Shown here in pieces: positions 1 to 34,553 of a stretch of 35,056 nt of DNA; the first letter of the stretch is position 1, and each line of letters begins with the position of its first letter. The notes below the pieces were generated by a model. The model was not told the origin of the DNA. It saw only the letters and a list, made by a program, of their open reading frames with translations, and made no database searches. The translations under genes and the position numbers were made by a program. The stretch lies in the IMG/VR virus record IMGVR_UViG_2734482782_000004. The stretch is one strand, 5' to 3'. Origin of the DNA: a virus (lineage: Duplodnaviria; Heunggongvirae; Uroviricota; Caudoviricetes).

Positions 1-1362
1 ATGTTTAAACCGGAACTCCTTTCCCCGGCGGGAACGCTGAAAAATATGCGTTACGCTTTCGCTTATGGCGCAGATGCTGTTTATGCGGGCCAGCCGCGTT
101 ATTCCCTGCGTGTGCGCAACAACGAATTCAACCACGAAAATCTTCAGCTCGGCATCAATGAAGCCCACGCGCTGGGGAAAAAGTTTTATGTCGTGGTCAA
201 CATTGCACCGCACAACGCCAAGCTGAAAACCTTTATCCGTGACCTGAAACCGGTGGTGGAAATGGGGCCGGATGCGCTGATTATGTCCGATCCAGGGCTG
301 ATTATGCTGGTGCGTGAGCACTTCCCTGAAATGCCGATCCACCTTTCGGTGCAGGCTAACGCCGTGAACTGGGCGACGGTGAAATTCTGGCAGCAAATGG
401 GCCTGACCCGCGTGATCCTCTCTCGCGAGCTGTCGCTGGAAGAGATTGAAGAGATCCGCAATCAGGTGCCGGATATGGAGATCGAGATCTTCGTTCACGG
501 CGCGCTGTGCATGGCCTACTCCGGTCGCTGCCTGCTCTCTGGCTATATCAACAAGCGCGACCCGAACCAGGGCACCTGCACCAACGCCTGCCGCTGGGAG
601 TACAACGTCCAGGAAGGGAAAGAAGATGATGTTGGCAACATCGTACACAAGTACGAGCCGATTCCGGTGCAAAATGTTGAGCCGACGCTGGGTATCGGCG
701 CACCAACCGACAAAGTGTTTATGATCGAAGAGGCCCAGCGTCCGGGCGAGTATATGACCGCGTTTGAAGATGAGCACGGCACTTACATCATGAACTCGAA
801 AGATCTGCGCGCCATCGCCCATGTAGAACGCCTGACCAAAATGGGCGTGCATTCGCTGAAAATCGAAGGTCGTACCAAATCTTTCTACTATTGTGCACGC
901 ACCGCACAGGTTTACCGCAAAGCTATCGATGACGCCGCTGCGGGAAAACCGTTCGATACCAGCCTGCTGGAAACTCTGGAAGGTCTGGCGCATCGTGGCT
1001 ATACCGAAGGTTTCCTGCGTCGTCATACTCACGACGATTATCAGAACTACGAATACGGTTATTCAGTTTCTGACCGCCAGCAGTTTGTTGGTGAGTTTAC
1101 CGGTGAGCGCAAGGGGGACCTCGCGGCGGTAGCGGTGAAAAATAAATTCTCCGTTGGCGACAGCCTTGAGCTGATGACGCCGCAAGGCAACATTAATTTT
1201 ACCCTTGAGCACATGGAAAACGCCAAAGGCGAAGCTATGCCGATAGCACCAGGCGATGGTTATACTGTGTGGCTCCCGGTCCCGCAGGATCTTGAGCTCA
1301 ATTACGCGCTGCTGATGCGTAATTTCTCCGGGGAAACCACGCGTAATCCCCACGGTAAGTGA
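1..1362 (+). CDS. yegQ: U32-family peptidase-like protein YegQ (host gene, left flank)
   Basis: 453-aa ORF starting at window base 1; sequence recognisable as E. coli YegQ (Cys-rich CTNACRWEY region); normal-GC host DNA; lies upstream of cyaR as in E. coli K-12. Confidence 0.88.
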   Translation: MFKPELLSPAGTLKNMRYAFAYGADAVYAGQPRYSLRVRNNEFNHENLQLGINEAHALGKKFYVVVNIAPHNAKLKTFIRDLKPVVEMGPDALIMSDPGLIMLVREHFPEMPIHLSVQANAVNWATVKFWQQMGLTRVILSRELSLEEIEEIRNQVPDMEIEIFVHGALCMAYSGRCLLSGYINKRDPNQGTCTNACRWEYNVQEGKEDDVGNIVHKYEPIPVQNVEPTLGIGAPTDKVFMIEEAQRPGEYMTAFEDEHGTYIMNSKDLRAIAHVERLTKMGVHSLKIEGRTKSFYYCARTAQVYRKAIDDAAAGKPFDTSLLETLEGLAHRGYTEGFLRRHTHDDYQNYEYGYSVSDRQQFVGEFTGERKGDLAAVAVKNKFSVGDSLELMTPQGNINFTLEHMENAKGEAMPIAPGDGYTVWLPVPQDLELNYALLMRNFSGETTRNPHGK

Positions 1363-1446: not shown

Positions 1447-1533
1447 GCTGAAAAACATAACCCATAAAATGCTAGCTGTACCAGGAACCACCTCCTTAGC
1501 CTGTGTAATCTCCCTTACACGGGCTTATTTTTT
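1447..1533 (+). ncRNA. cyaR: CyaR (RyeE) small regulatory RNA; its 3' terminator overlaps the prophage attL core
   Basis: 87-nt stretch gctgaaaaacataacccataaaatgctagctgtaccaggaaccacctccttagcctgtgtaatctcccttacacgggcttatttttt matches CyaR as I recall it; ends in hairpin plus U-tract; positioned between yegQ and the ogr end as in K-12. Confidence 0.75.
1507..1533. repeat. attL core (27 bp), identical to attR core
   Basis: aatctcccttacacgggcttatttttt is present at 1507..1533 and again at 34554..34580; it is the reverse complement of the P2 core AAAAAATAAGCCCGTGTAAGGGAGATT as I recall it. Confidence 0.85.
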
Positions 1534-1597
1534 ACGTACAACAAATTGAAATAAAAGGATTTATTTCTGGTCACGTCCACACATTGACCACATCGAC

Positions 1598-1621
1598 AAA
1601 AAAGCCCCTCGACTGAGGGGC
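1598..1621 (-). terminator. Rho-independent terminator downstream of ogr
   Basis: Minus-strand hairpin gcccctc-agtc-gaggggc (plus-strand 1604..1621) followed on the minus strand by TTTTTT (plus-strand A-run 1598..1603). Confidence 0.6.
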
Positions 1622-1634
1622 TTCCTGTTTGTAA

Positions 1635-1853
1635 TTACATCCACATAATTTGCTGCCCTGACGGCAACGGGTGCGGCCTTACGGCATGGACTTCTCCCGG
1701 CTTCACGATGTATCGCTGTACCGACTCATAAGTGATGAACGTGGCACTGCAATTCACGTTCTGGCACTGATGATAACGCTCTTTTGTCGTGTCAGTGATA
1801 TAGCGGCTTGTACGCGCATGTGCGGCATGCTGGCATAAAGGACAATGAAACAT
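1635..1853 (-). CDS. ogr: Ogr late-gene transcriptional activator (C4 zinc finger)
   Basis: 72-aa product MFHCPLCQHAAHARTSRYITDTTKERYHQCQNVNCSATF...; CxxC...CxxxxC zinc-finger spacing; internal ATG of the 93-aa track ORF gives the P2 length; first gene inside attL as in P2 prophages. Confidence 0.85.
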   Translation of the reverse strand: MFHCPLCQHAAHARTSRYITDTTKERYHQCQNVNCSATFITYESVQRYIVKPGEVHAVRPHPLPSGQQIMWM

Positions 1854-8237: not shown

Positions 8238-8333
8238 CCGTTTAACTCCGTGGTTAATGGGTGCAACTATTTTCTGTTGTGCAGAGCATGAGACGCTATT
8301 TGACCTGGCTGGTCAGGGGATGAAACAACAGAT

Positions 8334-8359
8334 AAAGAAAATGCGGGCAATTCGCCCGC
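8334..8359 (-). terminator. Rho-independent terminator separating the cargo locus from the FI late promoter region
   Basis: Hairpin gcgggc-aatt-gcccgc (8343..8359) followed on the minus strand by attttcttt. Confidence 0.45.
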
Positions 8360-8517
8360 CTGTCCTGATTTGTACTCACTCATTTTCCGCCTGACAATTT
8401 ACATAGCCCAAATGCTATCAAATCTGACAGTCTGCTTTGAGCGAGGAGCGGACATTGAGCTTGGTCTCAAGTATGCTGATTTTTTTTAGCTAATATCTTG
8501 GTTTTTTGATCAATAGG

Positions 8518-8547
8518 TTGCTGGTCAGCCCTAGGATCAGATATAAA
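8518..8547 (+). promoter_or_regulatory. Candidate sigma70 promoter for the HNH-like cargo gene
   Basis: TTGCTG (8518..8523), 18-bp spacer, TATAAA (8542..8547), about 55 bp upstream of the ATG at 8603; read by eye only. Confidence 0.3.
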
Positions 8548-8602
8548 AAGTATGATTTTATTCTCCCCACATAGATGAAAAAAACAAAGAAGCATAACTT
8601 TT

Positions 8603-9355
8603 ATGACCAAGACAAATAGGCACAACTTTCCTCCAAGCGTTGTAGGTAAGGTAGCAGAGCGCGCTGCATATATTTGTAGCAATCCCTCTTGTCATAGGGT
8701 AACAATCGGCCCGGATCAATTGGCGGAAAATCTTTCTATCAAGACGGGTGAGGCGGCGCATATCTGCGCGGCGAGCCCTGGCGGACCGCGCTATGACATG
8801 TCTCAGTCAGAAACAGAGCGGAAGAGCATAAAAAATGCTATATGGTTGTGCGGAGCTTGTGCTGATTTAGTTGATAAGAATGGCGGTATGGGCTACCCCG
8901 CCGAGTATTTGCGAAAATGGAAACGTGACCACGAATCACTAATGAAGGAGTGCTTGGAGGGAGGAAAGAGGCTAATTTTTCAATTTCTATCGCATCGCCC
9001 AGACGAGAAAATTGCTCTGCGGGTGATCCATTTATTGGAAGACAAGAGTTCTCTTTATCTGCCATATGCTCAAGAGGATCCAGCACGAGTCTCGGATTCT
9101 TTGAAGGAGCTCCGACTCTCTCTTACGGCGATTCGCTCCGAGATTGCACCTGAGTCTCCGCTATCGTTGATCGTCGAGTCAATTGTCCGTGCGTGCCGAC
9201 ACTATATGAATTCAACGCCAGATCGGCCGGGCATTGATGAGCTTAACTTCTCCCTCGGCGCAGTTCGTAAGGTAGTAGGAATTAACATCGGAGAACTATT
9301 GAAACACTATGAAATCCAGGTGAGTCACGAATTGCATTCTATTATTCCTAAATGA
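8603..9355 (+). CDS. Cargo protein with N-terminal HNH-like nuclease motif and a C-terminal domain of unknown function (candidate defence effector)
   Basis: 250-aa ORF in AT-rich DNA at the Z/fun position; residues 25-93 read C-x4-C-H ... GEAAHICAASPGG ... N-x4-LCGAC ... DKN, resembling the HNH beta-beta-alpha-Me fold with a Cys4 zinc knuckle; own terminator at 9378..9412. Confidence 0.6.
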   Translation: MTKTNRHNFPPSVVGKVAERAAYICSNPSCHRVTIGPDQLAENLSIKTGEAAHICAASPGGPRYDMSQSETERKSIKNAIWLCGACADLVDKNGGMGYPAEYLRKWKRDHESLMKECLEGGKRLIFQFLSHRPDEKIALRVIHLLEDKSSLYLPYAQEDPARVSDSLKELRLSLTAIRSEIAPESPLSLIVESIVRACRHYMNSTPDRPGIDELNFSLGAVRKVVGINIGELLKHYEIQVSHELHSIIPK

Positions 9356-9377
9356 ATTTTAACCAATAACTCAAGTT

Positions 9378-9412
9378 GGCGAAGCCTGAAAAAGATGAGC
9401 TTCGCCATTTTT
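9378..9412 (+). terminator. Rho-independent terminator after the HNH-like gene
   Basis: Hairpin ggcgaagc-(13 nt)-gcttcgcc followed by attttt. Confidence 0.6.
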
Positions 9413-9516
9413 CTCGGACCTTGAGTAATTAGTGCAGACACAATAAGCATATTGTTTTCGAGTGCACGACGAACGTAGTTTTCGATACTTTGAGTATTAT
9501 AGCTTCAACTTTTTAC

Positions 9517-10302
9517 TTACATCAAAAATAACTTACAATATTTGTAAGTTGCTTTGTGTACGAAAATGCTTGCGTCAACTCTTGACATCGGATTTTTTAA
9601 TATCCCTCCGGAACTTCCCTTTCCATGTCTCGCAAGATACCCTAACAGTTCAAAGCTATTAGCAGTGCCCGTGAATCTGCTGATTTCCTTTTCATCAATA
9701 TTAAAAGCCATGCTAATTACTTTATCTCTCTGATATTTCTTGCCTTTATAAGTGTCGGGAAAATTTAGTATACCTTTCACATATTTATCATATACATATT
9801 CTCTAATTGTTTCCCACAAACGATAAAGATTAACCCAATCATCACCTAAGGCACACATACCTAAAACAACACGTAAGGATTCATGTTTAGATGATAAATT
9901 AATTAATCGTGAAAAATTATCAGCGCGAGGGTGTGGTTGCTGTATGTCATGGAAATTAAAGGGGTTTACCTGAGTTACATCCATTGATTTAAAGCCGCAT
10001 ATTTCCGAGTAATTAATGCCTTCACTTCCAGAAATAGAAAGAGGACCAAAAGATTGATATCTTTCAAAACCATAAAGAACGCTAAGTGCGCCGTTCATGA
10101 GCATCAACAAACCTTTTAACTTGGAAGCCAATTCATTTGGGTCGGATATGATATTCAAATGAGGAGATGAAAGTAAATGAATATCTGTTTGCCCTAAATC
10201 AGAGTCAGAATCATCATTTATAGAGAAATCATTCGACCAAACTCCACATAATCTTTTAACAAATCCTGTAGATGGAGTAAGTAAAAAACTATAATCGTAC
10301 AT
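9517..10302 (-). CDS. Hypothetical cargo protein, 261 aa, no recognisable motif
   Basis: Long ORF in strongly AT-rich DNA, where chance ORFs of this length are unlikely; ATG at 10300..10302 preceded by GAGGGA about 8 nt upstream; convergent with the HNH-like gene. Confidence 0.55.
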   Translation of the reverse strand: MYDYSFLLTPSTGFVKRLCGVWSNDFSINDDSDSDLGQTDIHLLSSPHLNIISDPNELASKLKGLLMLMNGALSVLYGFERYQSFGPLSISGSEGINYSEICGFKSMDVTQVNPFNFHDIQQPHPRADNFSRLINLSSKHESLRVVLGMCALGDDWVNLYRLWETIREYVYDKYVKGILNFPDTYKGKKYQRDKVISMAFNIDEKEISRFTGTANSFELLGYLARHGKGSSGGILKNPMSRVDASIFVHKATYKYCKLFLM

Positions 10303-10456
10303 AACTCAAATCCCTCTTTTTTATATCCTAAATGGAATACAAAAATTATTGTTTATTTGTTATGTTCAATATACTCACATAACCGAAAACTTTAACACGC
10401 TCATTCTAAGTGAACTAAATCTAAAGATATACCTTTGAAAACTGAAAACTCAATGC

Positions 10457-10487
10457 TGGCAACGTCCGCTCCTGGCACAAAGCGAAC
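10457..10487. repeat. 31-bp imperfect direct repeat, copy A (27/31 identical to copy B)
   Basis: tggcaacgtccgctcctggcacaaagcgaac here versus tggcaatgtctgctcctggcacagagcggac at 11820..11850. Confidence 0.7.
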
Positions 10488-10551
10488 ATTCCTTGACGTC
10501 CTGTCAGGGAAACCCACCTGGACGTTCAGGTGATTCTGTCGATTATAGTCA

Positions 10552-10577
10552 TAAAAAAGCCGCCCCGGAGGGACGGC
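10552..10577 (-). terminator. Strong rho-independent terminator of the 227-aa membrane-protein gene
   Basis: Minus-strand GC-rich hairpin gccgtccc-tcc-ggggcggc followed by TTTTTTAT, about 80 nt downstream of the stop at 10657. Confidence 0.7.
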
Positions 10578-10656
10578 TATAAACTCGCCAGTTAACAAGC
10601 TGATTTTACCGCTTACGCGGTTCTGTCGTTGCGGTGTTCGCTGACCCACTGCGCCT

Positions 10657-11340
10657 TTACAGTTTATCGCTTATGAATCCATGAGCCTTAAATGTCCTGA
10701 CAAAATCCTCATAGCGCGCAATCATCCCCCCCGATGTTTCACGCACATTTTGCTGATGAAAGCGGAAGTTTGCCTCCGATTCAACACTCTTACTCTTCCA
10801 GTCATGGGGAAGGCTTAGCATCACTGGCTTTCTGTTCGGGTAATCAACACTCATAAATGGTAGCGTACTATCTACGTATGCGGTCATAGCGTCCAAAAAA
10901 GCGTCTTTCGCACCATTCACTTCAGTATTGAATAACCGATACTTTTCACCGCTAAATTTTTCAGCTTTTTCAATGTTTAAGCAAACATCTTGCCGTATAC
11001 CGCTCAGGTAGCTCTGCTCAACCCATTGAGTAGTATCCTCATAAGGCAGCAATTCAAGGATCTGGTCGATTATCTTCAGATCATGTTCATCTTGCTTTTT
11101 TTTTACAGGGTCCTCAGTAGATTCATTGGATGTGTGGTAAACGTTGGTGGTCTGATTAATATCCCGCCCGGCCTGGTTCACATCACCCTCGGTTTTCTTT
11201 GCCTTCTGTTTTATGTTGTTTTGCTGTCTGATTCTATATGTAACACCGCCCCCAATACCAAACAGTGCCAGTACGCCGACTAATAAGCTAAGATAGGTAG
11301 CTGCGTCTGCACCAAAATGTGCATTAAGCCATTCAGTCAT
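10657..11340 (-). CDS. Cargo membrane-anchored protein, 227 aa (N-terminal TM helix, then soluble domain); candidate single-gene defence or abortive-infection effector
   Basis: ORF with hydrophobic segment AATYLSLLVGVLALFGIGGGV at residues about 12-33; own extended -10 promoter and own terminator; AAGGA ribosome-binding site. Confidence 0.6.
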   Translation of the reverse strand: MTEWLNAHFGADAATYLSLLVGVLALFGIGGGVTYRIRQQNNIKQKAKKTEGDVNQAGRDINQTTNVYHTSNESTEDPVKKKQDEHDLKIIDQILELLPYEDTTQWVEQSYLSGIRQDVCLNIEKAEKFSGEKYRLFNTEVNGAKDAFLDAMTAYVDSTLPFMSVDYPNRKPVMLSLPHDWKSKSVESEANFRFHQQNVRETSGGMIARYEDFVRTFKAHGFISDKL

Positions 11341-11370
11341 TTGAACTATGTCCTTACAGTGTGAGTAAAG

Positions 11371-11400
11371 ATTATAATAACAGAGCTAACTTGCGCAGAA
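11371..11400 (-). promoter_or_regulatory. Candidate extended -10 sigma70 promoter of the 227-aa gene
   Basis: Minus-strand reads ttctgcgcaagttagctctgTtattataat: TGnTATTAT / TATAAT element with a weak -35; lies immediately downstream of the terminator at 11403..11433. Confidence 0.45.
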
Positions 11401-11402
11401 AC

Positions 11403-11433
11403 GAAAAAAGGCAGGGGAGGTAACCCCCCTGCC
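11403..11433 (-). terminator. Rho-independent terminator, probable end of the tail-fibre late transcript
   Basis: Minus-strand hairpin ggcagggg-(loop)-cccctgcc (11410..11433) followed by TTTTTTCGTTT. Confidence 0.65.
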
Positions 11434-11819
11434 TTTAATCAAGTTCCTCCATCCCTTACGGGCGTCCGGTCAGTTGCTTGATGGCAACCAGACCAGCTAG
11501 CATTATTTGCATCACCAGTAAGACTGTTGTTAGCGTTATCACTTCGACGTCTCCTCTTCCAGGAGAGCGCCACACGTAGTAAGTGCTTTTGGTTCTACCC
11601 GCCCCCCTCACTCCGCATCCATTAGTTAGCAGGTACAAGCAGCACTCTTTCGTGTGGTAAGCCAACAGGACAGCACTGGACTGACGCCTTGAGCTTTAAT
11701 ATTTCCTTCCGATCCATACAACTAGGTCTGTTAAAAGCCCCTAGGACGAATTCTACAGAGATGGCTATGGTGCAGGTTTCGGCTATAGGGCTCTTTGATG
11801 TAATCGAGGGTCATAACGT

Positions 11820-11850
11820 TGGCAATGTCTGCTCCTGGCACAGAGCGGAC
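11820..11850. repeat. 31-bp imperfect direct repeat, copy B, just 3' of gene G
   Basis: See copy A; copy B overlaps the left arm of a 10-bp-stem hairpin (11836..11877, tggcacagag / ctctgtgcca) lying 22 nt downstream of the G stop. Confidence 0.7.
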
Positions 11851-11899
11851 TGTCAGATTAGGCTTTACTCTGTGCCATAGATATGTAAGCTAATACAAC

Positions 11900-12430: not shown

Positions 12431-14680
12431 TTATACCTGCGCCACGTTATACCATGTCCCGTTAATGTATTTCTGCACCGGTCTGTAATATACGCCACCA
12501 ATGTTATCGGCAGAGTTTGAGCCGGTATCCTGAACAATAATGCCGGTATATACGCAACCTGACGGAGCCTGATGCGTCCATGTAGTACCATTATTTGCTG
12601 GTTTATATGTAGATGCACCGCCCAGCCGCATGTCTCTCACATAACGTGAATCTGACTCAGTTTTGGTGTATGCACCAACATCTCCCGCTGAGGGTTTATG
12701 AGCAGTTGTATATAGTTGCGCCCATCCAGACCAGTTAGCATCTGTGGTATCTCTTCGGGAACGAATATATGCCGGAGCATGAGCACCGCTGGTTCCACTC
12801 CAGCCAATAAGTAACTCACCCTCTCCTACTGCGGTTACGCCAGTGAGATGAAGCACATTACCATAGGCTGTTGGGTAGCCATTGTTGTATGCCTCATACA
12901 TCTGAATACCTGGTGTCCCCTTTACGCTCCCACCTAATGCATTAACACGGTTTCTGGATACCAGTGTATTAATATTTATATCGGCAGAGCCATCAAATCT
13001 GACACCATTAATATTTCTTGCGTTCGCTAACTTCGTTGCTGTTGCAGCATTTCCTGAAAGGCTGGAAATAAATGGATGTGAACAGTAATAACCACGTCCA
13101 TTTTTAAAATCCAGAATAGCCTGTGCGTTCGTGCTTTCTGTAGCGGGATTAGTTGCCCCCCACTTATATGTCGTTTGACCGACGACATAATCCTCTGTCG
13201 GAACAATAACCGTTAGCCCTTCCTCTGCAAGAATTTGTACAGGGAAAGCTCTGGCTTCAACATAAAAAACACTACATACATCATCATCTTTCAGGCTTGT
13301 AACAATGGAATGGATTGAACGCTCATTAGTCTGATACGTCCAGAAATAACCTGCCGCATATGAACCACGATCAGTCCAGCCTCCGGGCATAACCATGCCA
13401 TTAAACTCGCAGTTATTCATTACATAATCGCCGTTATAACAACCAGTGGAAATAACAACGCGGGATGCCATTTCTCCTGAAAGGCTGGCAGCACGGCGAA
13501 AGATAACGGGGTACCACTTCCCGGCAACGACATTTGCAGGGGCTGCAAACGAATACTTTCGCATTCCCTTTTTCTTATCCACTTCACCTTTGCTGTAAAC
13601 ATTAATGTTACTCAGGAAGCGTTCTTTATCAGGGATATCCGCACCGTTTTGATCTTTCTGAAGACGTTTTTCAGCATTGTCATAGGCAGACTTCACCGCC
13701 TTTGGCGTTGCAGCCTGCGTTTCAGAATCACTGTTGGTGGCGCTACTGAGCTGGACAAGACCTTTTCGCGCCGTGGTGGCATCCTGTGCAGTGTATTTCC
13801 CGTTAGCAAGGTCATATGCTGTCTTAACCGCCTTTGGCGTTGCCGCAAGCGTTTCAGAATCGCTGTTGGTGGCGCTACTGAGCTGAACAAGGCCTTTTCG
13901 CGCTGTTGTGGCATCCTGTGCAGTGTATTTCCCGTTAGCAAGGTCATATGCTGCCTTTACCGCTTTCGGCGTTGCGGCGAGCGTTTCAGACGTGCTGTTA
14001 GTCGCACTACTGAGCTGAACAAGGCCTTTTCGCGCGGTGGTAGCGTCCTGTGCGGTATATTTCCCGTTAGCAAGGTCATATGCGGCCTTAACCGCTTTCG
14101 GAGTTGCAGCCAGTGTTTCAGACGTGCTGTTGGTCGCACTGCTTAACTGAGTAAAACCTTTTGCGGTCAGCGAGGCGTCAGGGTGACGTCGTGACTGTTC
14201 ATGTTCTGCAATTTTGTCATCAACGTAATCCTGCGTTGCCATCACCGTTGTGGTGTCAATGGTCAGCTCCACTGAGGCCACACTGCTGACGATGATGACC
14301 ATGCGGCAGGTCTGCGAACGCCCTGAGCCTTCGGCAAGGGCTGGCTTATAACTTTCGGCCATGTTCGCCACGGCAATTAGCGTTCCCGCATCATCGTACA
14401 GGCCAAGTTCACGCATCCAGAAACCACCCACCTCCGGCGGAATAACCAGCTCTGCGATAATATAATTACTGTTTCGTTTGTCCTGGCTGATTTTGTTCAG
14501 CGCATGTCGCCAGACTTCATGGATAAGCCCGGTCTGTCCGGCATCCGGGACAGGCAATTTACCACCGCCATCCCCGACGGCCATCGTGGTAATGTTGACC
14601 TTCCGCCCTCCCGGTGCGGTTGCCGCTGCCAGCTTTGCTGCACCGGCAGTGGTGATAACGGTTTTGAATTTTGTGCTCAT
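12431..14680 (-). CDS. H: Tail fibre protein gpH, with an expanded internal tandem repeat
   Basis: 749-aa ORF; N-terminus MSTKFKTVITTAGAAKLAAATAPGG is P2 H-like; contains about 3.8 tandem copies of a 44-aa unit (LSSATNSTSETLAATPKAVKAAYDLANGKYTAQDATTARKG); longer than P2 H (669 aa by memory). Confidence 0.85.
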   Translation of the reverse strand: MSTKFKTVITTAGAAKLAAATAPGGRKVNITTMAVGDGGGKLPVPDAGQTGLIHEVWRHALNKISQDKRNSNYIIAELVIPPEVGGFWMRELGLYDDAGTLIAVANMAESYKPALAEGSGRSQTCRMVIIVSSVASVELTIDTTTVMATQDYVDDKIAEHEQSRRHPDASLTAKGFTQLSSATNSTSETLAATPKAVKAAYDLANGKYTAQDATTARKGLVQLSSATNSTSETLAATPKAVKAAYDLANGKYTAQDATTARKGLVQLSSATNSDSETLAATPKAVKTAYDLANGKYTAQDATTARKGLVQLSSATNSDSETQAATPKAVKSAYDNAEKRLQKDQNGADIPDKERFLSNINVYSKGEVDKKKGMRKYSFAAPANVVAGKWYPVIFRRAASLSGEMASRVVISTGCYNGDYVMNNCEFNGMVMPGGWTDRGSYAAGYFWTYQTNERSIHSIVTSLKDDDVCSVFYVEARAFPVQILAEEGLTVIVPTEDYVVGQTTYKWGATNPATESTNAQAILDFKNGRGYYCSHPFISSLSGNAATATKLANARNINGVRFDGSADININTLVSRNRVNALGGSVKGTPGIQMYEAYNNGYPTAYGNVLHLTGVTAVGEGELLIGWSGTSGAHAPAYIRSRRDTTDANWSGWAQLYTTAHKPSAGDVGAYTKTESDSRYVRDMRLGGASTYKPANNGTTWTHQAPSGCVYTGIIVQDTGSNSADNIGGVYYRPVQKYINGTWYNVAQV
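13664..14161. repeat. Tandem 132-bp repeats (about 3.8 copies) inside the tail fibre gene
   Basis: Direct inspection: the block gcgctactgagctg(g/a)acaag(a/g)ccttttcgcgc... recurs with a 132-bp period; it also creates an artefactual Cys/Arg-rich antisense ORF. Confidence 0.8.
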
Positions 14681-17186: not shown

Positions 17187-18260
17187 ATGAGTACTTACTT
17201 TTTCTCGTCAGAAACAATGAAAGAATTGTTCAAAGATTATCTGGTCTTTTTGAACACGCTGACTCCCAGCACAAACTTTGAATCAAACAGAAACAAAATA
17301 ATTGCTCAAGCAATAAACTTCATTTCCGAAAACCCTGAAGATTGGGACAAAAAATCCCAGTACAACATTGCTATGATTGGCGACACCTTTAAAAGTTTCT
17401 TAAGAGAAAAGGGAGAAGATAACAACAGCATCAACCTTATATTCACTTGCTTTTTTAGATTTATCATTGAACCAAGCATTCTCTCTCCGGAAATAGAGTC
17501 TCACTTTTCACCACTAAGAACCATCAAGGATTTTGCTCTGTATAACTATAATGAATTCGATGAGCGGAGCAGAGCACAGATAGACTTTTCTCTTAGAGAA
17601 CTGCCATTAGCAATGGTTAAAGAAGTTTTAAGCTCCAGCAATGTTGACACATATAAAAAATACATTGATAGTTTAAACGAAGGGCGTCAATTTTTCGAAA
17701 AGTGCGACTCCTTCTTAAAGGAGCAACATGCCAAAATAGAGTCAATTAAAGAGTCATTAAAAGGGTATGAGGTCGCATTTAATTTTGTTGGACTGTTTGA
17801 AGGCTTTAATTCACTTGGCAAAAAGAAAGAAAGTGAAATCATGCTATCAAGAATAATTCTTATCATCTTGGCTATAATCATTCCCTCCCCGCTGATATAC
17901 TATGGAATGCATAAATTACCAGCTCTCGAAACGACAAATGCTGCCACATATTTTATGTCAGCACTACCTTTTGCATCAGTTACATTGATTTTCATGTATT
18001 ACTTTAGAGTTGTACTGCTAAATCATATATCGTTACGAACTCAGATTATGCAAATAGAACTCAGAAAGAGCCTTTGTCAGTTCATTCAGAGTTATAGCGA
18101 CTATTCCTCAGAGATAAGGAAAAACAATCCGGAAGCGCTTTCAAAATTCGAAGACGTAGTATTTTCAAACATCATGCTATCCGATGATAAGATACCATCT
18201 ACATTTGATGGCATTGAGCAAATAGCATCGTTAATCAATTCATTAAAAAATGGAAAGTAA
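17187..18260 (+). CDS. Cargo membrane protein, 357 aa (soluble N-domain of about 215 aa, two TM helices, C-terminal tail of about 80 aa), at the S-V junction (P2 orf30 position)
   Basis: AT-rich ORF opposite in strand to the tail genes; ATG at 17187 with AAGGGA 14 nt upstream (the next ATG is at 17217); hydrophobic segments IMLSRIILIILAIIIPSPLIYYG and AATYFMSALPFASVTLIFMYYFRVVLL; followed by a bidirectional terminator. Confidence 0.6.
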   Translation: MSTYFFSSETMKELFKDYLVFLNTLTPSTNFESNRNKIIAQAINFISENPEDWDKKSQYNIAMIGDTFKSFLREKGEDNNSINLIFTCFFRFIIEPSILSPEIESHFSPLRTIKDFALYNYNEFDERSRAQIDFSLRELPLAMVKEVLSSSNVDTYKKYIDSLNEGRQFFEKCDSFLKEQHAKIESIKESLKGYEVAFNFVGLFEGFNSLGKKKESEIMLSRIILIILAIIIPSPLIYYGMHKLPALETTNAATYFMSALPFASVTLIFMYYFRVVLLNHISLRTQIMQIELRKSLCQFIQSYSDYSSEIRKNNPEALSKFEDVVFSNIMLSDDKIPSTFDGIEQIASLINSLKNGK

Positions 18261-24736: not shown

Positions 24737-26509
24737 ATGACCATCACCACAGACACCACTCTTTTACACGACCCGCGTCGTCAGGCGGCGCTGCTGTACT
24801 GGCAGGGGTTTTCCGTGCCGCAGATTGCCGCCATGTTGCAGATGAAACGCCCGACGGTGCAGAGCTGGAAACAGCGCGACGGCTGGGACAGTGTTGCCCC
24901 CATCAGCCGTGTCGAAATGAGTCTGGAAGCGCGGCTGACCCAGCTCATCATCAAACCGCAGAAAACCGGCGGTGACTTCAAGGAAATTGACCTGCTCGGA
25001 CGCCAGATTGAACGACTGGCACGGGTCAACCGTTACAGTCAGACCGGCAACGAGGCAGACCTTAATCCGAACGTCGCTAACCGCAACAAAGGCGGGCGTC
25101 GCAAACCGAAAAAGAATTTTTTCAGCGACGAAGCCATCGAAAAGCTGGAGCAGATTTTCTTTGAGCAGTCTTTCGACTATCAGTTGCACTGGTATCGCGC
25201 CGGGCTTGAGCACCGCATCCGTGATATCCTGAAATCCCGCCAGATTGGCGCGACGTTTTATTTTTCCCGCGAGGCGCTGCTGCGTGCCCTGAAAACCGGT
25301 CATAACCAGATTTTTCTGTCGGCCAGTAAAACGCAGGCGTATGTGTTCCGCGAATACATCATCGCCTTTGCCCGGCTGGTTGACGTTGACCTGACCGGTG
25401 ACCCGATTGTCCTGGGCAATAACGGCGCAAAACTGATTTTTCTCGGCACCAACTCCAACACCGCGCAGAGCCATAACGGCGACCTGTACGTCGACGAGAT
25501 TTTCTGGATCCCGAATTTTCAGGTACTGCGTAAGGTGGCATCAGGTATGGCCTCACAGAGTCACCTGCGCTCGACCTATTTCTCCACCCCGTCCACGCTG
25601 GCGCACGACGCCTACCCGTTCTGGTCGGGTGAACTGTTCAACCGGGGACGCGCCAGCGCCGCCGAACGCGTGGAAATCGACGTCAGCCATAACGCCCTTG
25701 CCGGTGGTCTTCTCTGTGCGGACGGCCAGTGGCGGCAGATTGTCACCATTGAGGACGCACTGAAAGGCGGCTGCACGCTGTTCGACATTGAGCAGCTCAA
25801 ACGCGAAAACAGCGCCGACGATTTTAAAAACCTGTTCATGTGTGAATTTGTTGACGACAAGGCGTCGGTGTTCCCGTTCGAGGAGCTGCAACGCTGCATG
25901 GTCGACACGCTGGAAGAATGGGAAGACTATGCGCCGTTTGTCGCAAATCCGTTCGGCTCCCGCCCGGTCTGGATTGGTTACGACCCGTCACACCGTGGCG
26001 ACAGCGCCGGATGCGTGGTGCTGGCACCGCCGGTGGTGGCCGGTGGCAAATTCAGAATACTTGAGCGTCACCAGTGGAAAGGCATGGACTTTGCCACCCA
26101 GGCGGAATCCATCCGCAAACTCACCGAAAAATACAACGTCGAATACATCGGAATTGATGCCACCGGCCTCGGTGTCGGCGTGTTCCAGCTCGTGCGCTCG
26201 TTCTATCCCGCCGCGCGCGACATCCGCTACACGCCGGAAATGAAAACCGCAATGGTGCTCAAGGCAAAAGACGTCATCCGCCGTGGCTGTCTGGAATATG
26301 ACGTCAGCGCCACCGACATCACCAGCTCGTTTATGGCTATCCGCAAGACCATGACCAGCAGCGGACGCAGCGCCACGTATGAGGCCAGCCGCAGCGAGGA
26401 AGCCAGCCACGCCGACCTCGCCTGGGCGACCATGCACGCCCTGTTAAATGAGCCACTCACCGCCGGTATCAGCACCCCGCTGACATCCACCATTCTGGAG
26501 TTTTACTGA
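24737..26509 (+). CDS. P: Terminase large (ATPase) subunit gpP
   Basis: 590-aa product from the ATG at 24737 (MTITTDTTLLHDPRRQAALLYWQGF...), preceded by GCGAGG; the track ORF begins at an upstream TTG. Confidence 0.85.
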   Translation: MTITTDTTLLHDPRRQAALLYWQGFSVPQIAAMLQMKRPTVQSWKQRDGWDSVAPISRVEMSLEARLTQLIIKPQKTGGDFKEIDLLGRQIERLARVNRYSQTGNEADLNPNVANRNKGGRRKPKKNFFSDEAIEKLEQIFFEQSFDYQLHWYRAGLEHRIRDILKSRQIGATFYFSREALLRALKTGHNQIFLSASKTQAYVFREYIIAFARLVDVDLTGDPIVLGNNGAKLIFLGTNSNTAQSHNGDLYVDEIFWIPNFQVLRKVASGMASQSHLRSTYFSTPSTLAHDAYPFWSGELFNRGRASAAERVEIDVSHNALAGGLLCADGQWRQIVTIEDALKGGCTLFDIEQLKRENSADDFKNLFMCEFVDDKASVFPFEELQRCMVDTLEEWEDYAPFVANPFGSRPVWIGYDPSHRGDSAGCVVLAPPVVAGGKFRILERHQWKGMDFATQAESIRKLTEKYNVEYIGIDATGLGVGVFQLVRSFYPAARDIRYTPEMKTAMVLKAKDVIRRGCLEYDVSATDITSSFMAIRKTMTSSGRSATYEASRSEEASHADLAWATMHALLNEPLTAGISTPLTSTILEFY

Positions 26510-27543
26510 TGAACAAGAAAAAAGGGAAAACACCGCAACCTGCGGCAAAAAAAATGACCGCCAGCGCCCCGAAAATGGAGGCATTCACCTTTGGTGAGCC
26601 GGTGCCGGTACTCGACCGCCGTGACATTCTGGATTACGTCGAGTGTATCAGTAACGGCAGATGGTATGAGCCACCGGTCAGCTTTACCGGTCTGGCAAAA
26701 AGCCTGCGTGCTGCCGTGCATCACAGCTCACCGATTTACGTTAAACGCAATATTCTGGCCTCGACATTTATCCCGCATCCGTGGCTTTCCCAGCAGGATT
26801 TCAGCCGCTTTGTGCTGGATTTTCTGGTGTTCGGCAATGCGTTTCTGGAAAAGCGTTACAGCACCACCGGTAAGGTCATCAGACTGGAAACCTCACCGGC
26901 AAAATATACCCGCCGTGGCGTGGAGGAGGATGTTTACTGGTGGGTGCCGTCCTTCAACGAGCCGACAGCCTTCGCGCCCGGTTCCGTGTTTCACCTGCTG
27001 GAGCCGGATATTAATCAGGAGCTGTACGGCCTGCCGGAATATCTCAGCGCCCTTAACTCTGCCTGGCTGAATGAGTCGGCCACGCTGTTCCGCCGCAAGT
27101 ATTACGAAAATGGCGCTCATGCCGGATACATCATGTACGTTACCGATGCCGTGCAGGATCGCAACGATATCGAAATGCTTCGCGAAAACATGGTGAAGTC
27201 GAAAGGCCGCAACAACTTTAAAAACCTGTTTCTCTATGCCCCGCAGGGGAAAGCCGACGGCATTAAAATTATCCCGCTCAGTGAAGTGGCGACGAAGGAC
27301 GATTTTTTTAATATCAAAAAAGCCAGCGCCGCTGACCTGCTGGACGCACACCGCATCCCCTTTCAGTTGATGGGGGGCAAGCCGGAGAATGTCGGGTCGC
27401 TGGGTGATATTGAGAAAGTGGCAAAGGTCTTTGTCCGCAATGAGCTTATCCCGTTACAGGACAGGATCCGCGAGATAAACGGCTGGCTCGGTCAGGAGGT
27501 CATCCGCTTTAAAAACTACTCACTGGACACTGACAACGGCTGA
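26509..27543 (+). CDS. Q: Portal protein gpQ
   Basis: 344-aa ORF, P2 Q length; ATGA overlap with the P stop. Confidence 0.85.
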   Translation: MNKKKGKTPQPAAKKMTASAPKMEAFTFGEPVPVLDRRDILDYVECISNGRWYEPPVSFTGLAKSLRAAVHHSSPIYVKRNILASTFIPHPWLSQQDFSRFVLDFLVFGNAFLEKRYSTTGKVIRLETSPAKYTRRGVEEDVYWWVPSFNEPTAFAPGSVFHLLEPDINQELYGLPEYLSALNSAWLNESATLFRRKYYENGAHAGYIMYVTDAVQDRNDIEMLRENMVKSKGRNNFKNLFLYAPQGKADGIKIIPLSEVATKDDFFNIKKASAADLLDAHRIPFQLMGGKPENVGSLGDIEKVAKVFVRNELIPLQDRIREINGWLGQEVIRFKNYSLDTDNG

Positions 27544-27548
27544 ACATC

Positions 27549-27570
27549 GCCGCCTGCGGGCGGCTTTTTT
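27549..27570 (+). terminator. Rho-independent terminator after Q
   Basis: Hairpin gccgcc-tgcg-ggcggc followed by TTTTTT. Confidence 0.7.
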
Positions 27571-27712
27571 ACAACCCGCCATCACGCCCTCACACGCTCA
27601 CCACCGCACAAAACAGCCCGCAGACACACCAACGCCCCGGCGAACAATCTAAACGCCATCACGACGCGCTCAGACGCTGAAAAAATAAAATCAGCACCAC
27701 CGCCAGCGCGCA

Positions 27713-27731
27713 GTGCTTTCCCCGCCTCGCC
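27713..27731. other. cos cohesive-end site (19 nt)
   Basis: gtgctttccccgcctcgcc is the reverse complement of the P2 cohesive end GGCGAGGCGGGGAAAGCAC as I recall it; it sits between Q and the replication genes, as expected for a prophage. Confidence 0.75.
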
Positions 27732-28015
27732 CGCCCGCTTCACAGGGCGGTTTTAATGCAGTTGCATAGATACTATGGATCCGCACCAGTCCTGACCGCA
27801 CGCAGCCTGAACGGACATCCCCAACGCATGCAAAAACATTCACTTGTTGCATGCATAGCTTTTTAAGTACGCCATACCGCAACTGTACATTTTTAAGCAA
27901 TTGGCAACTTTAAAAAATTTACATTGCTTTCAAGACCTTATCATCCGTAGTCTCTGTTTTTTACTTTGAGCTACATCAATAAAATCTCAAACATGTTTAA
28001 TGCAAAGCCCTTGTT

Positions 28016-28069
28016 ACACAACATAGAATGTATGTCTAGAAACAACGACATACTATATGTTGTGTTTTT
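28016..28069 (+). terminator. Long imperfect hairpin (10-bp outer plus 7-bp inner stem) followed by a T-tract; candidate terminator, attenuator or structured RNA
   Basis: acacaacata (28016..28025) pairs with tatgttgtgt (28056..28065); inner gtatgtc / gacatac; followed by TTTT. Confidence 0.4.
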
Positions 28070-28209
28070 CCGGCTCTCTGTTCGGTGATATGCCAAATCA
28101 CTTTGCGTTTAAACAGAGCATTATTTCAGGGCAAGACTTCGCTCAAAAGTCATTCCACCTAAGAAGCGCATATACCGGTGGAAGTTGCCCTCTACTTACA
28201 GGAGGCAAT

Positions 28210-28323
28210 ATGAAGAAATGCTATTACTGCATTCTCGTTCTGGCCCTCTTTGGCTATCCAAACGGTAGTCCGAGTGGTTTGTCAGTAAACGTCAGTAATA
28301 TCAATGTCAGCATTATGCTTTAA
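28210..28323 (+). CDS. Candidate small hydrophobic peptide (37 aa) in the tin/old-position cargo region
   Basis: ATG at 28210 preceded by consensus AGGAGG (28200..28205); product MKKCYYCILVLALFGYPNGSPSGLSVNVSNINVSIML; followed by a bidirectional terminator; flanked by 15-bp direct repeats. Confidence 0.35.
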   Translation: MKKCYYCILVLALFGYPNGSPSGLSVNVSNINVSIML

Positions 28324-28340
28324 TATGCTTCAAACAAAAA

Positions 28341-28365
28341 AACCACCTGCCAGGGTGGTTTTTTT
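28341..28365. terminator. Bidirectional rho-independent terminator
   Basis: Hairpin aaccacc-tgccag-ggtggtt with T-tract downstream and A-tract upstream. Confidence 0.65.
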
Positions 28366-28625
28366 GCGCCCATCATCAATACGATGAAAGACTGACAAGA
28401 CTTCGCTCAAGACGAATTATGCGTCGACATAAGGTTACCCGCAATGATTTTATTAGACTAAATGGATGGCCTTTTATGACCCGGATCAAACGGCTGTCCT
28501 TACCGACATGCTAGTCACTCAATAGCATTTAGCCTTCTAATTCAGCATGCTATTGACCTTCTGCTGCCCCATAACTGCTCCGCATAAGCCATTCAATGCC
28601 ATATCAAATTACGTTGTGTTTTTAC

Positions 28626-30944
28626 TCAAATGGGTAACGAGAACCCCGGCCACTCATCAGCGACCGGATATCTGAATTTTTTCCCGTCATAATTTACGGT
28701 TGCCCCACGCGCCAGCGCCTCAATCTCCCATCGCTGCGGCCTGATACCGTTCTGAGCAAGGTCAACGCGGATACGGGTAATTTGCGTTCGTTCCGACCGG
28801 GTCAGTCTGGCCGATGGCGCTATTTCATGTGGTTTTAACAGGCTTCCGTTTCTCTGCTGACGATTTGGTGTTCTCAGTCCGTGTTTTAATGCACCTCTGA
28901 GCGCCCTCACGACCTCTGGCTCATTCCATTCGATAACACCGTCATCAACCAGATTAAGCACGGCTGCGGCATGTTCAGAAGGTGTGGGAGCCGGTAACGA
29001 AGTATCACCACCGGTGAGCTTTCCACAGTTATTGACAGGACTCCGAGGCGCGGCGATGCCGCTTTTTAAAGTCAAAGGCTCAACGACCGGAACTTTCGGC
29101 ACAATGCGCCAGTCCGTCGTTCTGGTGATATGAATATGACGCGCGCCGAGATGCGGCGCGTAAATGCCGACCACCCTCTCGACCTCTTCCTCGTACTCGT
29201 TAACGTCATCCGACGGGCTACGGGCGACCCTGACAGTCTGACAATCGCGCGGGACATTTGCCCCACCCTGCGCGCTGATATACAACGCAAAATCACCACT
29301 GTCTGCGGCGGCGCGTGCAGCCTCGACGCGCTCGTCAAACTCATCAGCAATGCTGACGCCGCGCGGCAATTTGCGTAGTTCACGGTAAGCCCCCATTGTC
29401 GGCAGACCAACCGTTTTAAATTGCGGGATGCGCCACGTTGACGCCCATGCGGTAACAGCCGCAGCAGTGTCTTTCAGCGGCCTGCCGGTATCGTTATCGA
29501 GCTGACCATCCAGTGCATAGCCGTCGATGTTTTTTGAGATGTATTTCGCGATATACCCCGCAGCACCGCCCCGGTTAAGGTGTTTTGCCTGAAAACGGTT
29601 TCGCGCGGCTCCTCTTTCGTCGCCATCCTCTTTGAGCGCATAGCGACGCATGATTTCGATAATCTGGTTACGCTGGCGCGGATTACAAAAAAGCATCATA
29701 TGCCAGTGCGGCGTTCCGTCGTGGTGTGGCTCGACGACACGCAAACCGTAGACCTGTAAATCATTATCCTTGAATGCCGTGCGCATCAGGCTCCAGATAC
29801 GGCAGAGATAACGCTGCGCATCCTTTGGATTAAATGCCTCATCGTTCCAGCCGTGATTTAGCTGGACGGTTTTACTTTCGCCTTTTCTGACCTGACGTGT
29901 CGGGTGATACTTTGACGGCGCGGTCAGCGTGATAAACATCCCCACATCACCCTCTGCTGCGGCGTAACGCTCAATACCGGCAATGGTGTTCATCATCTCC
30001 ATCCGGCGAATTTCAGGATTAGAAATACTGCCCATCACCTTACTGATAAGGTCGATGCGCTCGCCGGTTTCCCTGTTTTCAAGGTCACACGATTTAAGAA
30101 ATTCCAGATTTGCCTGGCGGCGCGCACGCACATCACGAATGGCGTGTTTACTGGCATAAGGAGAACGGTCTTTATTGACCTCCCCGACAGCTATCAGTAA
30201 CGCTTCATGCCAGCGCATACGCTGGCCTTTAAGCTGATGAGTCCACCACTCATCGTTAAACAGACGGGCAATGGCAGAATATGCCTGCCTCGTGGTCATC
30301 TGTCCTTTACGGTATTTTTTCCAGTAGAGAGGGGAAATATTGAAAGCTCGTGCAGCGCCAGCAACATGACCATACAGGTGAGCCTGAGCCTCATCCATAA
30401 ACAGTGATTCTTTTTCGCCATGCGCATCCACCCAGGCATCGCTGAGTTCCTCATACATCATGAAAAGCTGTGATGAGATACGGGCGGCAAACTTTTTCAG
30501 CTCCTTGTCATTCATTCCAGGCAAACGCGCATAATGGTCACGCTCTGCCAGAAACAGCAACGACGCGTCGGTGTTCATTTCATGGCGCTGATTCACACGC
30601 TCAATGCGCGGCCATAAACGACGCTGAAAAGTGGATGTGAGGAAATAAAACCCGTGCACCGGGCTTTTATTGCGCCGGATGTAGTCATAGCGTGAAGTAA
30701 ACAGCGAGCGCAAAAAATAAGGCAGGCGGTTAATCGTGGATAAAACACCTTGCACCTGACGCATCTCGTCACGTGTAAGAGGTCTTTCGCGCCCGACAGC
30801 CTCGCGTGGCGCGTTCCATGCATAAGCACCGGTAAACGTCTTACCGGTGCCTGCGGTAAATGCTGACGGAGGGACAAAACGCCCGGAGGCTTTAACGGCC
30901 ATATGAGCCAAAAGCCTCTGAACAACGCTTGCTGAGTTGCTCAA
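28626..30944 (-). CDS. A: Replication initiation protein gpA (rolling-circle nickase)
   Basis: 772-aa ORF, P2 A size class (761 aa by memory) and position; exact start uncertain. Confidence 0.8.
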   Translation of the reverse strand: MSNSASVVQRLLAHMAVKASGRFVPPSAFTAGTGKTFTGAYAWNAPREAVGRERPLTRDEMRQVQGVLSTINRLPYFLRSLFTSRYDYIRRNKSPVHGFYFLTSTFQRRLWPRIERVNQRHEMNTDASLLFLAERDHYARLPGMNDKELKKFAARISSQLFMMYEELSDAWVDAHGEKESLFMDEAQAHLYGHVAGAARAFNISPLYWKKYRKGQMTTRQAYSAIARLFNDEWWTHQLKGQRMRWHEALLIAVGEVNKDRSPYASKHAIRDVRARRQANLEFLKSCDLENRETGERIDLISKVMGSISNPEIRRMEMMNTIAGIERYAAAEGDVGMFITLTAPSKYHPTRQVRKGESKTVQLNHGWNDEAFNPKDAQRYLCRIWSLMRTAFKDNDLQVYGLRVVEPHHDGTPHWHMMLFCNPRQRNQIIEIMRRYALKEDGDERGAARNRFQAKHLNRGGAAGYIAKYISKNIDGYALDGQLDNDTGRPLKDTAAAVTAWASTWRIPQFKTVGLPTMGAYRELRKLPRGVSIADEFDERVEAARAAADSGDFALYISAQGGANVPRDCQTVRVARSPSDDVNEYEEEVERVVGIYAPHLGARHIHITRTTDWRIVPKVPVVEPLTLKSGIAAPRSPVNNCGKLTGGDTSLPAPTPSEHAAAVLNLVDDGVIEWNEPEVVRALRGALKHGLRTPNRQQRNGSLLKPHEIAPSARLTRSERTQITRIRVDLAQNGIRPQRWEIEALARGATVNYDGKKFRYPVADEWPGFSLPI

Positions 30945-31167
30945 CCTGCGCGTTTAAATCAGCAAAAGACTTTGCGCTTCCGGTCAGAATATCGTGATGC
31001 ATCAGGCCGGAAACGAGCTGGCTTAATTTCGGGTAATAACCAACCACCGCCAGCCATTCCTGACCGGCGTTTTTACCGCTTTCCGCTCTCTTTTTCTCGT
31101 GGAGAATAAACTGAAAGCTGTCACTGGTAACGACATAACGTTCGCCAATTTCAATACGAATACTCAT
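30892..31167 (-). CDS. Hypothetical protein (P2 orf83 position)
   Basis: 91-aa ORF, translationally coupled in the B-to-A early operon. Confidence 0.5.
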   Translation of the reverse strand: MSIRIEIGERYVVTSDSFQFILHEKKRAESGKNAGQEWLAVVGYYPKLSQLVSGLMHHDILTGSAKSFADLNAQVEQLSKRCSEAFGSYGR

Positions 31168-31388
31168 GCCGTTCTCCGGTAATGTTTGTTTTTTGCTTCA
31201 AAGACTGACTGACAGGAAACACAACGCGTGGCTGACGGGTAAGCCGCACGACGGGCAGCAGGTATTGGCGCGTCACACTCTTCGCAAACCAGCGCAGAAG
31301 CACCGCAATGTTTTACCCTTGCCGCGTTAATCTGGCGCTCCAGTAATTCAGCCTGTTGTTCCTGAATAAAATCTACGTTGTCCGGCAT
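31164..31388 (-). CDS. DksA/TraR-family C4 zinc-finger protein (P2 orf82 position)
   Basis: 74-aa ORF with C-x2-C ... C-x2-C (CEECDAPIPAARRAAYPSATRCVSCQ). Confidence 0.6.
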   Translation of the reverse strand: MPDNVDFIQEQQAELLERQINAARVKHCGASALVCEECDAPIPAARRAAYPSATRCVSCQSVFEAKNKHYRRTA

Positions 31389-31390
31389 TA

Positions 31391-31693
31391 TCAGCTCCTT
31401 TTATCGTTAAGTTTCCTGGATACATCAGCGCAATAACTGGCAAGTTCTGTCGTTAATTTTGTCAGTTCATCCACTGAGGAAATTTGCTTGTGGAATACAG
31501 CGCGTTTAACAAGTAAATTGACCACATCAGACAGAAGGTTTAATTCATTCTGATAAATCGCGATAACAGATTCAGTTATGTCGCGTTTTTCTTTATCAAG
31601 GCAAAGTTGAATAAGAGACAAATCGCCATTTTTCATAACGGCGATTTTTAAGGCGTTATTCAGTAATACAACTGAATGAGAACAGGACATCAA
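31391..31693 (-). CDS. Hypothetical protein (P2 orf81 position)
   Basis: 100-aa ORF in the early operon, AT-rich. Confidence 0.5.
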
Positions 31694-31914
31694 AACACCT
31701 CCCCGCGAGACAATCCGATATTGTGAAATTTTTCCGACTCCTGACTGAGCAGCTCGACTATCTCCACGCGGGATAACTCCGCCTTTGTGATATGGCGAAT
31801 CATGGCGTCAAGATGAGAAGAAAAGCGTGTCGCTGCGTCGGCCTGTGCTTCGGCTCTGGCCCGTTGCAGCAGTAATGCGTATTTACCGCACTTGTTTTCA
31901 GAAACTGTATGCAT
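31690..31914 (-). CDS. Hypothetical protein (P2 orf80 position)
   Basis: 74-aa ORF, overlaps the next gene by 4 nt. Confidence 0.5.
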
Positions 31915-31977
31915 GACTTTCTCCAGACAAAAAGAAGCCCCGCACGATTAAGTACGTTAAAAACTCTGGTTAATTAT

Positions 31978-32478
31978 TTAATGCAGATATTGCTCTGGTT
32001 TTACCGACGTCAGAATTGTCGGTGCATACTCAAACAGGCTGAATAATTCACGTAATGCACGGAATAAAGCATCACGCCAGTAACATGATTCTTCATTAAT
32101 TCGCCAGTATGGCTGGTTGAATTCTTTTTCAGTCAATCCGGCATGCATAAATAAAGTACGACGCTGACTGACTGTTAAAAAACTAATATATGCATACTCA
32201 CTTGCGCCAACCTGACGGCGTTTTGAGAATGCCCCACGCAGTTCATCAATTGCACAAACCAACCGTTCACGTTCGACGTCGTTCATTTCTTCAAAACGCA
32301 TCGTTGCGTGACGTTGTTTTAACTGCGCATGAAAGCAAACCGTTAACCGTTCACGCTCCATCATCTGATTATAATAATCACATGTATCCTGCCAGCGAGG
32401 AACGGCAAGATGCTTACCAATTATCCGGCGCATAGCTGCTGGCTGTTTTTCAACGAGATTGAGCGTCATCACTGTCAT
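31978..32478 (-). CDS. B: Replication protein gpB
   Basis: 166-aa ORF, P2 B length and position. Confidence 0.8.
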   Translation of the reverse strand: MTVMTLNLVEKQPAAMRRIIGKHLAVPRWQDTCDYYNQMMERERLTVCFHAQLKQRHATMRFEEMNDVERERLVCAIDELRGAFSKRRQVGASEYAYISFLTVSQRRTLFMHAGLTEKEFNQPYWRINEESCYWRDALFRALRELFSLFEYAPTILTSVKPEQYLH

Positions 32479-33345: not shown

Positions 33346-33460
33346 CAATTCATCGTGAATATATTCATCACAAGTGCCTACTATTGGTGGCTAAATTTCA
33401 GCCACCACGAAAAAAGCGATTAGTAGTCGCCAAAAAACACACCACTCGGAGGGTTTTCTG

Positions 33461-34474: not shown

Positions 34475-34553
34475 CGTTTAAGGGCTTTCAGTGGTAATTT
34501 ATGCCGCTCAAACCCGCATTGTACCGTTGAAAGCCCCTACTGGTGCCCCCCTA

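Follow-up and report, generated by a model that had tools for sequence, protein, structure and literature searches.

A P2-type prophage at the 3' end of the small RNA gene cyaR in Escherichia coli

We are highly confident that the window, the whole stretch of 35,056 nucleotides analysed here, is the yegQ-cyaR-yegR locus of an Escherichia coli chromosome with a full-length P2-type prophage at the last 27-28 bp of the small RNA gene cyaR, placed there by Int-mediated recombination between attP and attB. Nothing in the sequence contradicts integration of P2 at cyaR, which we take to be both the locI site of P2 and its classical preferred site in E. coli C. A remnant at the P2 site of K-12 was reportedly described by Barreiro and Haggard-Ljungquist in 1992. 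A passage in Bobay et al. (PMC3603311) refers to ryeE as an already known phage target in E. coli, citing Wassarman et al. 2001, and according to a table in the paper on the E. coli W genome, the insertion site "cyaR RNA" harbours Wphi2 (P2) in W, ogr-D' in K-12 and P2*B in B (PMC3032704). Given these reports, and given that the int-core-yegR junction of the window is found in 812 of 5426 complete E. coli genomes (15%), a P2-type prophage at cyaR is a long-known and common arrangement, which the original prediction made for this DNA identified correctly. It is a textbook case and adds nothing to the biology of P2 or CyaR. It illustrates that the terminator of a conserved regulatory RNA can serve a temperate phage as its landing pad with the gene left undamaged, and it makes exact prophage boundaries available for annotating the genome.

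The cyaR gene and the repeated core

The features of the host locus and of the core repeat are as follows.

1-1362 (+): yegQ/trhP, host gene upstream of cyaR, 453 aa, Peptidase U32 (open reading frame; Pfam PF01136 and PF16325; annotation in matching E. coli genomes)
1447-1533 (+): cyaR (ryeE) small RNA gene, complete, 87 nt (Rfam; identity to empty-site and K-12 sequences; fold)
1498-1525 (+): intrinsic terminator hairpin of cyaR, 11-bp stem and 6-nt loop (terminator scan; RNA fold)
1507-1534 (+): core copy at the cyaR junction, POB' in P2 terms, of which 1507-1533 is the annotated 27-nt P2 attP core (exact repeat; NC_001895 attP core)
34554-34581 (+): core copy at the int junction, BOP' in P2 terms, 3' half of the cyaR terminator (exact repeat; alignment)
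34739-35056 (-): yegR, host gene on the far side, 105 aa (open reading frame; annotation in matching genomes)

The Rfam family CyaR_RyeE (RF00112) matches the plus strand at 1445-1530 over model positions 1-85 of 85, with 100.7 bits against a gathering score of 47 (E = 3.4e-19). This bears out the proposal of a cyaR-like sequence at 1447-1533. The 87-nt RNA begins with GCTGAAAAAC and closes with a T-run at 1528-1533. It folds with two 3' hairpins at -19.8 kcal/mol (z = -3.0 relative to shuffles). The Rho-independent terminator hairpin and U-tract of CyaR/RyeE, which form its Hfq-binding 3' module, are present at 1498-1533; the sequence 3' of the stem is TTATTTTTT, with the U-tract at 1528-1533. 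We also compared at least 120 cyaR loci, one per Enterobacteriaceae species genome, in which the genus Escherichia is represented by E. coli, E. albertii and Escherichia sp. E1V33 only. The gene yegQ adjoins cyaR in 116 of the 120 loci listed and occupies the same position here.

The sequence AATCTCCCTTACACGGGCTTATTTTTTA (28 nt) occurs exactly at 1507-1534 and 34554-34581, and the window contains no other copy when up to three mismatches are allowed. The 27-nt repeat originally noticed at 1507-1533 and 34554-34580, next to int, is thus exact, and the identity extends one base further (A1534 and A34581). Its description as the terminator hairpin and U-tract of cyaR holds for the U-tract but not for the whole hairpin, which starts at 1498, whereas the core starts at 1507. 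The core comprises the last two nucleotides of the 5' stem arm, the loop, the entire 3' arm and the U-tract.

Nine of the 11 bases of the 5' stem arm are missing from the copy at the int junction. The terminator scan called no terminator at this copy. It also forms no hairpin, because the core holds only two nucleotides of the 5' stem arm: its fold is no better than that of shuffled sequences (z = +0.8) and contains only a 6-bp long-range stem. The absence of a terminator call and the poor fold led us to reject this copy as a working terminator, for instance for the int transcript. Judged by its sequence, it is a duplicate and not a second terminator. The second partial copy of the cyaR terminator that had been placed at the far junction is therefore real as a partial copy, namely the 3' half, but it neither forms a hairpin nor is called a terminator.

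The attachment site and the unoccupied locus

We mapped the annotation of the P2 reference genome NC_001895 (27-nt attP core, arm sites P and P', IHF site and Cox-binding region) onto the window. The repeat equals the annotated attP core at 27 of 27 positions, both at 1507-1533 and at 34554-34580. The other elements and the genes next to them were located as follows.

1532-1565 (no strand): P2 IHF-binding site of attP (P2 annotation, 32/34)
1569-1596 (no strand): P2 Int arm-type binding site, P arm (P2 annotation, 28/28)
1601-1623 (-): P2 ogr / F-operon Rho-independent terminator (P2 annotation, 23/24; terminator scan)
1635-1853 (-): ogr, late-gene activator, first prophage gene (maps to P2 ogr, local alignment score 211 over 219 nt)
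33461-34474 (+): int, tyrosine integrase (Pfam Int_N and Phage_integrase; 336 of 337 aa as in P2 Int)
34440-34466 (no strand): P2 Int arm-type binding site, P' arm (P2 annotation, 27/27)
34464-34537 (no strand): P2 Cox-binding region of attP (P2 annotation, 74/74)

The arms of attP are split between the two junctions. To the right of the core at cyaR lie the IHF site, the P arm, the ogr terminator and ogr; the P' arm and the Cox sites are found to the left of the other core, with the end of int 79 nt upstream of it. A five-way alignment accordingly resolves the cyaR junction into the left host flank and the P side of the phage, and the int junction into the P' side of the phage and the right host flank. 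The proposal that a P2-type core of 27 bp serves as the integrase target is in keeping with these results: the repeat is the P2 attP core, and the arm elements are partitioned as integration predicts. The name attL that had been given to the cyaR junction needs to be changed, since phage convention places attL at the int/P'-arm junction and makes the cyaR junction attR (POB'); the substance of the proposal is unaffected. Two substitutions relative to P2 are found at 34543-34549, just left of the int-side core (GGTGCCCCCC in the window, GGTGACACCC in P2). They are the sole differences in the stretch from the P' arm through the Cox sites to the core, which is otherwise identical to P2.

A virtual empty site was constructed by joining 1035-1534 to 34582-35056, leaving one core copy, and was searched for in 5,426 complete E. 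coli genomes. The resulting 975-nt sequence is present at 100% identity and in a single piece in E. coli E2865 and VTB97585v (NZ_AP018808.1 and NZ_CP178711.1), between yegQ and yegR, and the site is contiguous in 4565 of the 5426 genomes. The empty site has exactly one core copy. Because the joined flanks with a single core are identical to unoccupied genomes, the repeats lie exactly at the junctions and the sequence of cyaR is unchanged. The alignment to an unoccupied yegQ-cyaR-yegR locus that had been suggested as a check thus gave a perfect match over all 975 nt, with no sign of repeats displaced from the junctions or of a cyaR gene ending elsewhere.

A direct repeat flanking an insertion could in principle be a chance match, or a target-site duplication of the kind produced by transposition, instead of an Int/att core. 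The bare existence of the repeat is all that fits such an origin, and the probability that we assign to it is practically nil. No match arose in any of 100 dinucleotide-preserving shuffles, so that no such repeat is to be expected by chance, and 28 bp is much longer than the target duplications of transposons. Moreover, the repeat does not differ from the attP core of P2, whose annotation is experimental, the arm, IHF and Cox sites are divided as integrative recombination predicts, and the empty site has a single core copy. We consider a chance repeat or target-site duplication to be refuted by the shuffles, the empty site, the P2 attP annotation and the partition of the arms.

We reconstruct the integration as follows. 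Int, a tyrosine recombinase, recombined phage attP with bacterial attB, the last 27-28 bp of cyaR, by strand exchange inside the core. As phage and host have the same core sequence, this exchange left two core copies. The copy at 1507-1534, joined to the host 5' part of cyaR, restores a sequence-identical 87-nt cyaR with its terminator, and next to it come the phage IHF site, the P arm, the ogr terminator and ogr. The copy at 34554-34581, which is preceded by int, the P' arm and the Cox sites, is an inert half-terminator without the 5' stem arm.

The prophage and the state of cyaR in the lysogen

The two core copies are separated by 33 kb of a P2-type Peduovirus.

1535-34553 (no strand): body of the P2-type (Peduovirus) prophage (open reading frames; megablast to P2 and relatives)

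Its genes are arranged in the order ogr-D-U-T-E-FII-FI, variable cargo (8.3-11.9 kb), G-H-I-J-W-V, an AT-rich open reading frame, S-R-lysis-X-L-M-N-O, followed by P-Q-cos region-A-B-cox and by C-int. By megablast, 1535-25000 shares ~96% identity with P2 and many other Peduovirus genomes over ~74% of its length, and 89% of 25001-34553 aligns to a P2-type phage record at ~97% identity. The gene content, the DNA identity of ~96-97% and an Int protein with 336 of 337 residues as in P2 confirm the proposed integrated prophage of P2 type. The element has in common with phage P2 (NC_001895) the core, P arm, P' arm and Cox sites, all identical, as well as the IHF site (32/34), Int, the C-int-att region (~99% identical at the DNA level) and the host locus. 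It differs only in the cargo of the variable regions (8.3-11.9 kb, and an AT-rich open reading frame at 17.2-18.3 kb) and in scattered substitutions (~3-4%) in the structural genes.

Could the element be a defective, fixed remnant that is no longer an excisable phage? We consider this unlikely, although remnants are common at this site (ogr-D' in K-12, and a relic of the P arm in every "empty" E. coli site) and about one quarter of the element is non-P2 cargo. Against a remnant, the open reading frames from ogr to int are long and uninterrupted and follow the gene order of P2 in full; identity to P2 is 97-100% in int, C, cox and all att elements; and the cargo lies in the known variable spots of P2, outside the essential genes. 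The prophage can probably still excise, given that the sequences of int, cox and all att elements are intact. P2 is not known to be SOS-inducible.

The first variable region, at 8300-11890 between FI and G, has a low GC content (42.5%) and contains three open reading frames absent from P2; its position is that of the Z/fun cargo of P2. The open reading frame at 8603-9355 (+) has an N-terminal HNH-endonuclease-like region with matches to PDC-M68A, a candidate defence family of PADLOC (E = 3.8e-24), and to CBASS-type endonuclease effectors. Those at 9517-10302 (-) and 10657-11340 (-) gave no match in Pfam or PADLOC. The region is likely to be an anti-phage cargo module. The second cargo region consists of an open reading frame of ~357 aa at 17187-18260 (+), which lies between the tail genes V and S on the opposite strand, has a GC content of 35% and encodes hydrophobic segments; it sits where P2 has the non-essential orf30. 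It has no Pfam or PADLOC match, so that among the four cargo open reading frames none is matched in Pfam and only the first is matched in PADLOC. The interval between Q and A (27544-28625), which is the location of cos and of the old/tin defence genes in P2, spans only ~1.1 kb and holds no open reading frame longer than 88 aa; cargo of the old/tin type appears to be absent from this spot. Within the tail-fibre gene H, a 132-nt (44-aa) unit is tandemly repeated 3.5 times with 88% identity at 13679-14134 (-).

In cyaR itself, the 87 nucleotides at 1447-1533 show no differences from the empty-site and K-12 sequences, so the gene is left intact in sequence in the lysogen, as had been proposed. Transcription of CyaR/RyeE is characteristically CRP-cAMP-dependent and its target regulation Hfq-dependent; the upstream DNA is likewise unchanged here, with 1035-1534 being 100% identical to unoccupied E. 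coli. Wphi2 of E. coli W, P2*B of E. coli B and the K-12 ogr-D' have the same insertion site, orientation and cyaR/P-arm/ogr junction as the window. In K-12, the order is cyaR, P2 P arm, ogr terminator, ogrK and a D' fragment; in the K-12 remnant (ogrK, yegZ) nothing is left but ogr and the 3' end of D, whereas the element in the window is full length. The endpoint of the K-12 deletion is within the second core copy, at TACACGGGC. In the K-12 lineage locus (L002, 2100-2130), D' is fused inside the second core copy at TACACGGGCTTATTTTTTT, and the old K-12 deletion therefore took all DNA between the middle of D and the middle of the core on the int side.

CyaR was characterised experimentally in K-12 with respect to its size, Hfq binding and targets, and the rebuilt cyaR of that strain is expressed and active. 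Because K-12 has the same cyaR/P-arm/ogr junction, cyaR is probably also expressed normally in the present lysogen. We weighed this against the possibility that cyaR, while rebuilt in sequence, is altered in function by its new downstream context, through termination or through read-through antisense into ogr, in which case "intact and functional" would be an overstatement. The bases just 3' of the U-tract do change, beginning after A1534, and read ACGTAC in the occupied site versus ATGCAT in the empty site. In addition, the CyaR terminator is reported to be leaky, with ~41% read-through in a reporter assay (PMC9765468). For these two reasons, the efficiency of termination and the read-through into the end of the prophage could differ slightly from the empty site. 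Transcripts reading through from cyaR would enter the prophage end antisense to ogr and meet the hairpin of the ogr terminator (1601-1623), which on the plus strand, 70 nt downstream of cyaR, is a second, weaker hairpin with a weak T-run. On the other side, the 87-nt RNA, the promoter region, the hairpin and the U-tract are all identical to the empty site, the strain in which the size, Hfq binding and targets of CyaR were established has the same type of junction, and the junction is carried by 15% of complete E. coli genomes. We judge an altered function of cyaR to be improbable and retain normal expression as our reading.

The arrangement resembles that of other phages that integrate at the 3' ends of RNA genes. 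Phage 186 integrates in a tRNA-Ile gene. Fels-2 and SopE-phi integrate in ssrA (PMC3448106), and Salmonella phages integrate at ryeB/sdsR (PMC3603311, PMC3333887). In all of these, attB lies across the structured 3' end of a conserved RNA gene, and the gene survives because the phage core carries a duplicate of this end as its replacement. The present case differs in that the target is the terminator of an Hfq-dependent small RNA and not a tRNA-like acceptor arm, and in that the shared core is short (27-28 nt) and comprises only half of the hairpin.

A possible older scar at the E. coli site, and cyaR in other genera

The only part of the analysis with some novelty concerns the "unoccupied" E. 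coli site, which may have arisen as a scar left by an ancient integration of P2 type. We put the probability of this slightly short of even. The starting point is a feature on the host side of the int junction.

34593-34641 (no strand): host-side relic of the P2 P arm, also present in unoccupied E. coli sites (repeat family D4; alignment)

The relic aligns to the P arm with a local alignment score of 38, compared with 14.4 +/- 2.3 for shuffled sequences, and none of 2000 shuffles reached 38. Of the 120 loci listed, 95 include yegS, and in most of these 95, that of Escherichia sp. E1V33 among them, no more than ~100 nt separate the cyaR terminator from the start of yegS. The E. coli locus has a specific insertion of ~810 bp, whose left end coincides exactly with the right edge of the P2 core (34582-34641 in the window; 1998-2808 in locus L001). 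This insertion opens with the decayed P-arm relic, contains a hairpin, yegR and AT-rich DNA, and has a degenerate core-like end just before the conserved region upstream of yegS. Among the 120 loci listed, yegR is found in E. coli only. Given that the E. coli insertion starts at the edge of the core and contains the P-arm relic and yegR, the present prophage may have landed in the surviving core of an older scar. A tblastn search with yegR as possible phage cargo against 50,697 phage records returned only a prophage-derived record with host flank and a 2.4-kb fragment, and so gave no independent support.

The cyaR terminator also differs within the genus. The 3' arm reads ACACGGGC in E. coli and ACGCAGGC in E. 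albertii and Escherichia sp. E1V33 (window 1498-1525 versus L032 and L071). The two differing bases are both inside the core, at its positions 13 and 15, and the 5' arm outside the core is identical in E. coli, E. albertii and E1V33; a G.U wobble is therefore found at a different position of the stem. A phage core that overwrote part of the terminator stem in E. coli could account for these differences. If the ancient scar is real, a phage would have brought in the DNA of the CyaR terminator of E. coli, or at least of its distal part, the 3'-arm differences may have been written by the phage core and not by point mutation, and yegR would be leftover cargo of a phage or island. Repeated phage traffic that scars the cyaR locus in all E. 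coli, with possible rewriting of the terminator, would bear on how the 3' ends of small RNAs evolve.

Finally, we looked for traces of P2-like phages at cyaR in other genera. In 11 of the 120 loci listed (Citrobacter, Buttiauxella, Enterobacter, E. albertii and others), a P2-like arm directly follows the locus's own version of the cyaR terminator. Four of these 11 (L058, L069, L073 and L082) have homologues of ogr and D within reach, and the arm alone is present in L018, L031, L046, L052, L071, L094 and L121. These loci identify cyaR, on sequence grounds, as an attachment site of the P2 family across genera. The core tracks the local terminator sequence and matches each host's own terminator variant at the arm-bearing loci. 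At the Buttiauxella junction (L046), the terminator stem contains a C.A mismatch.
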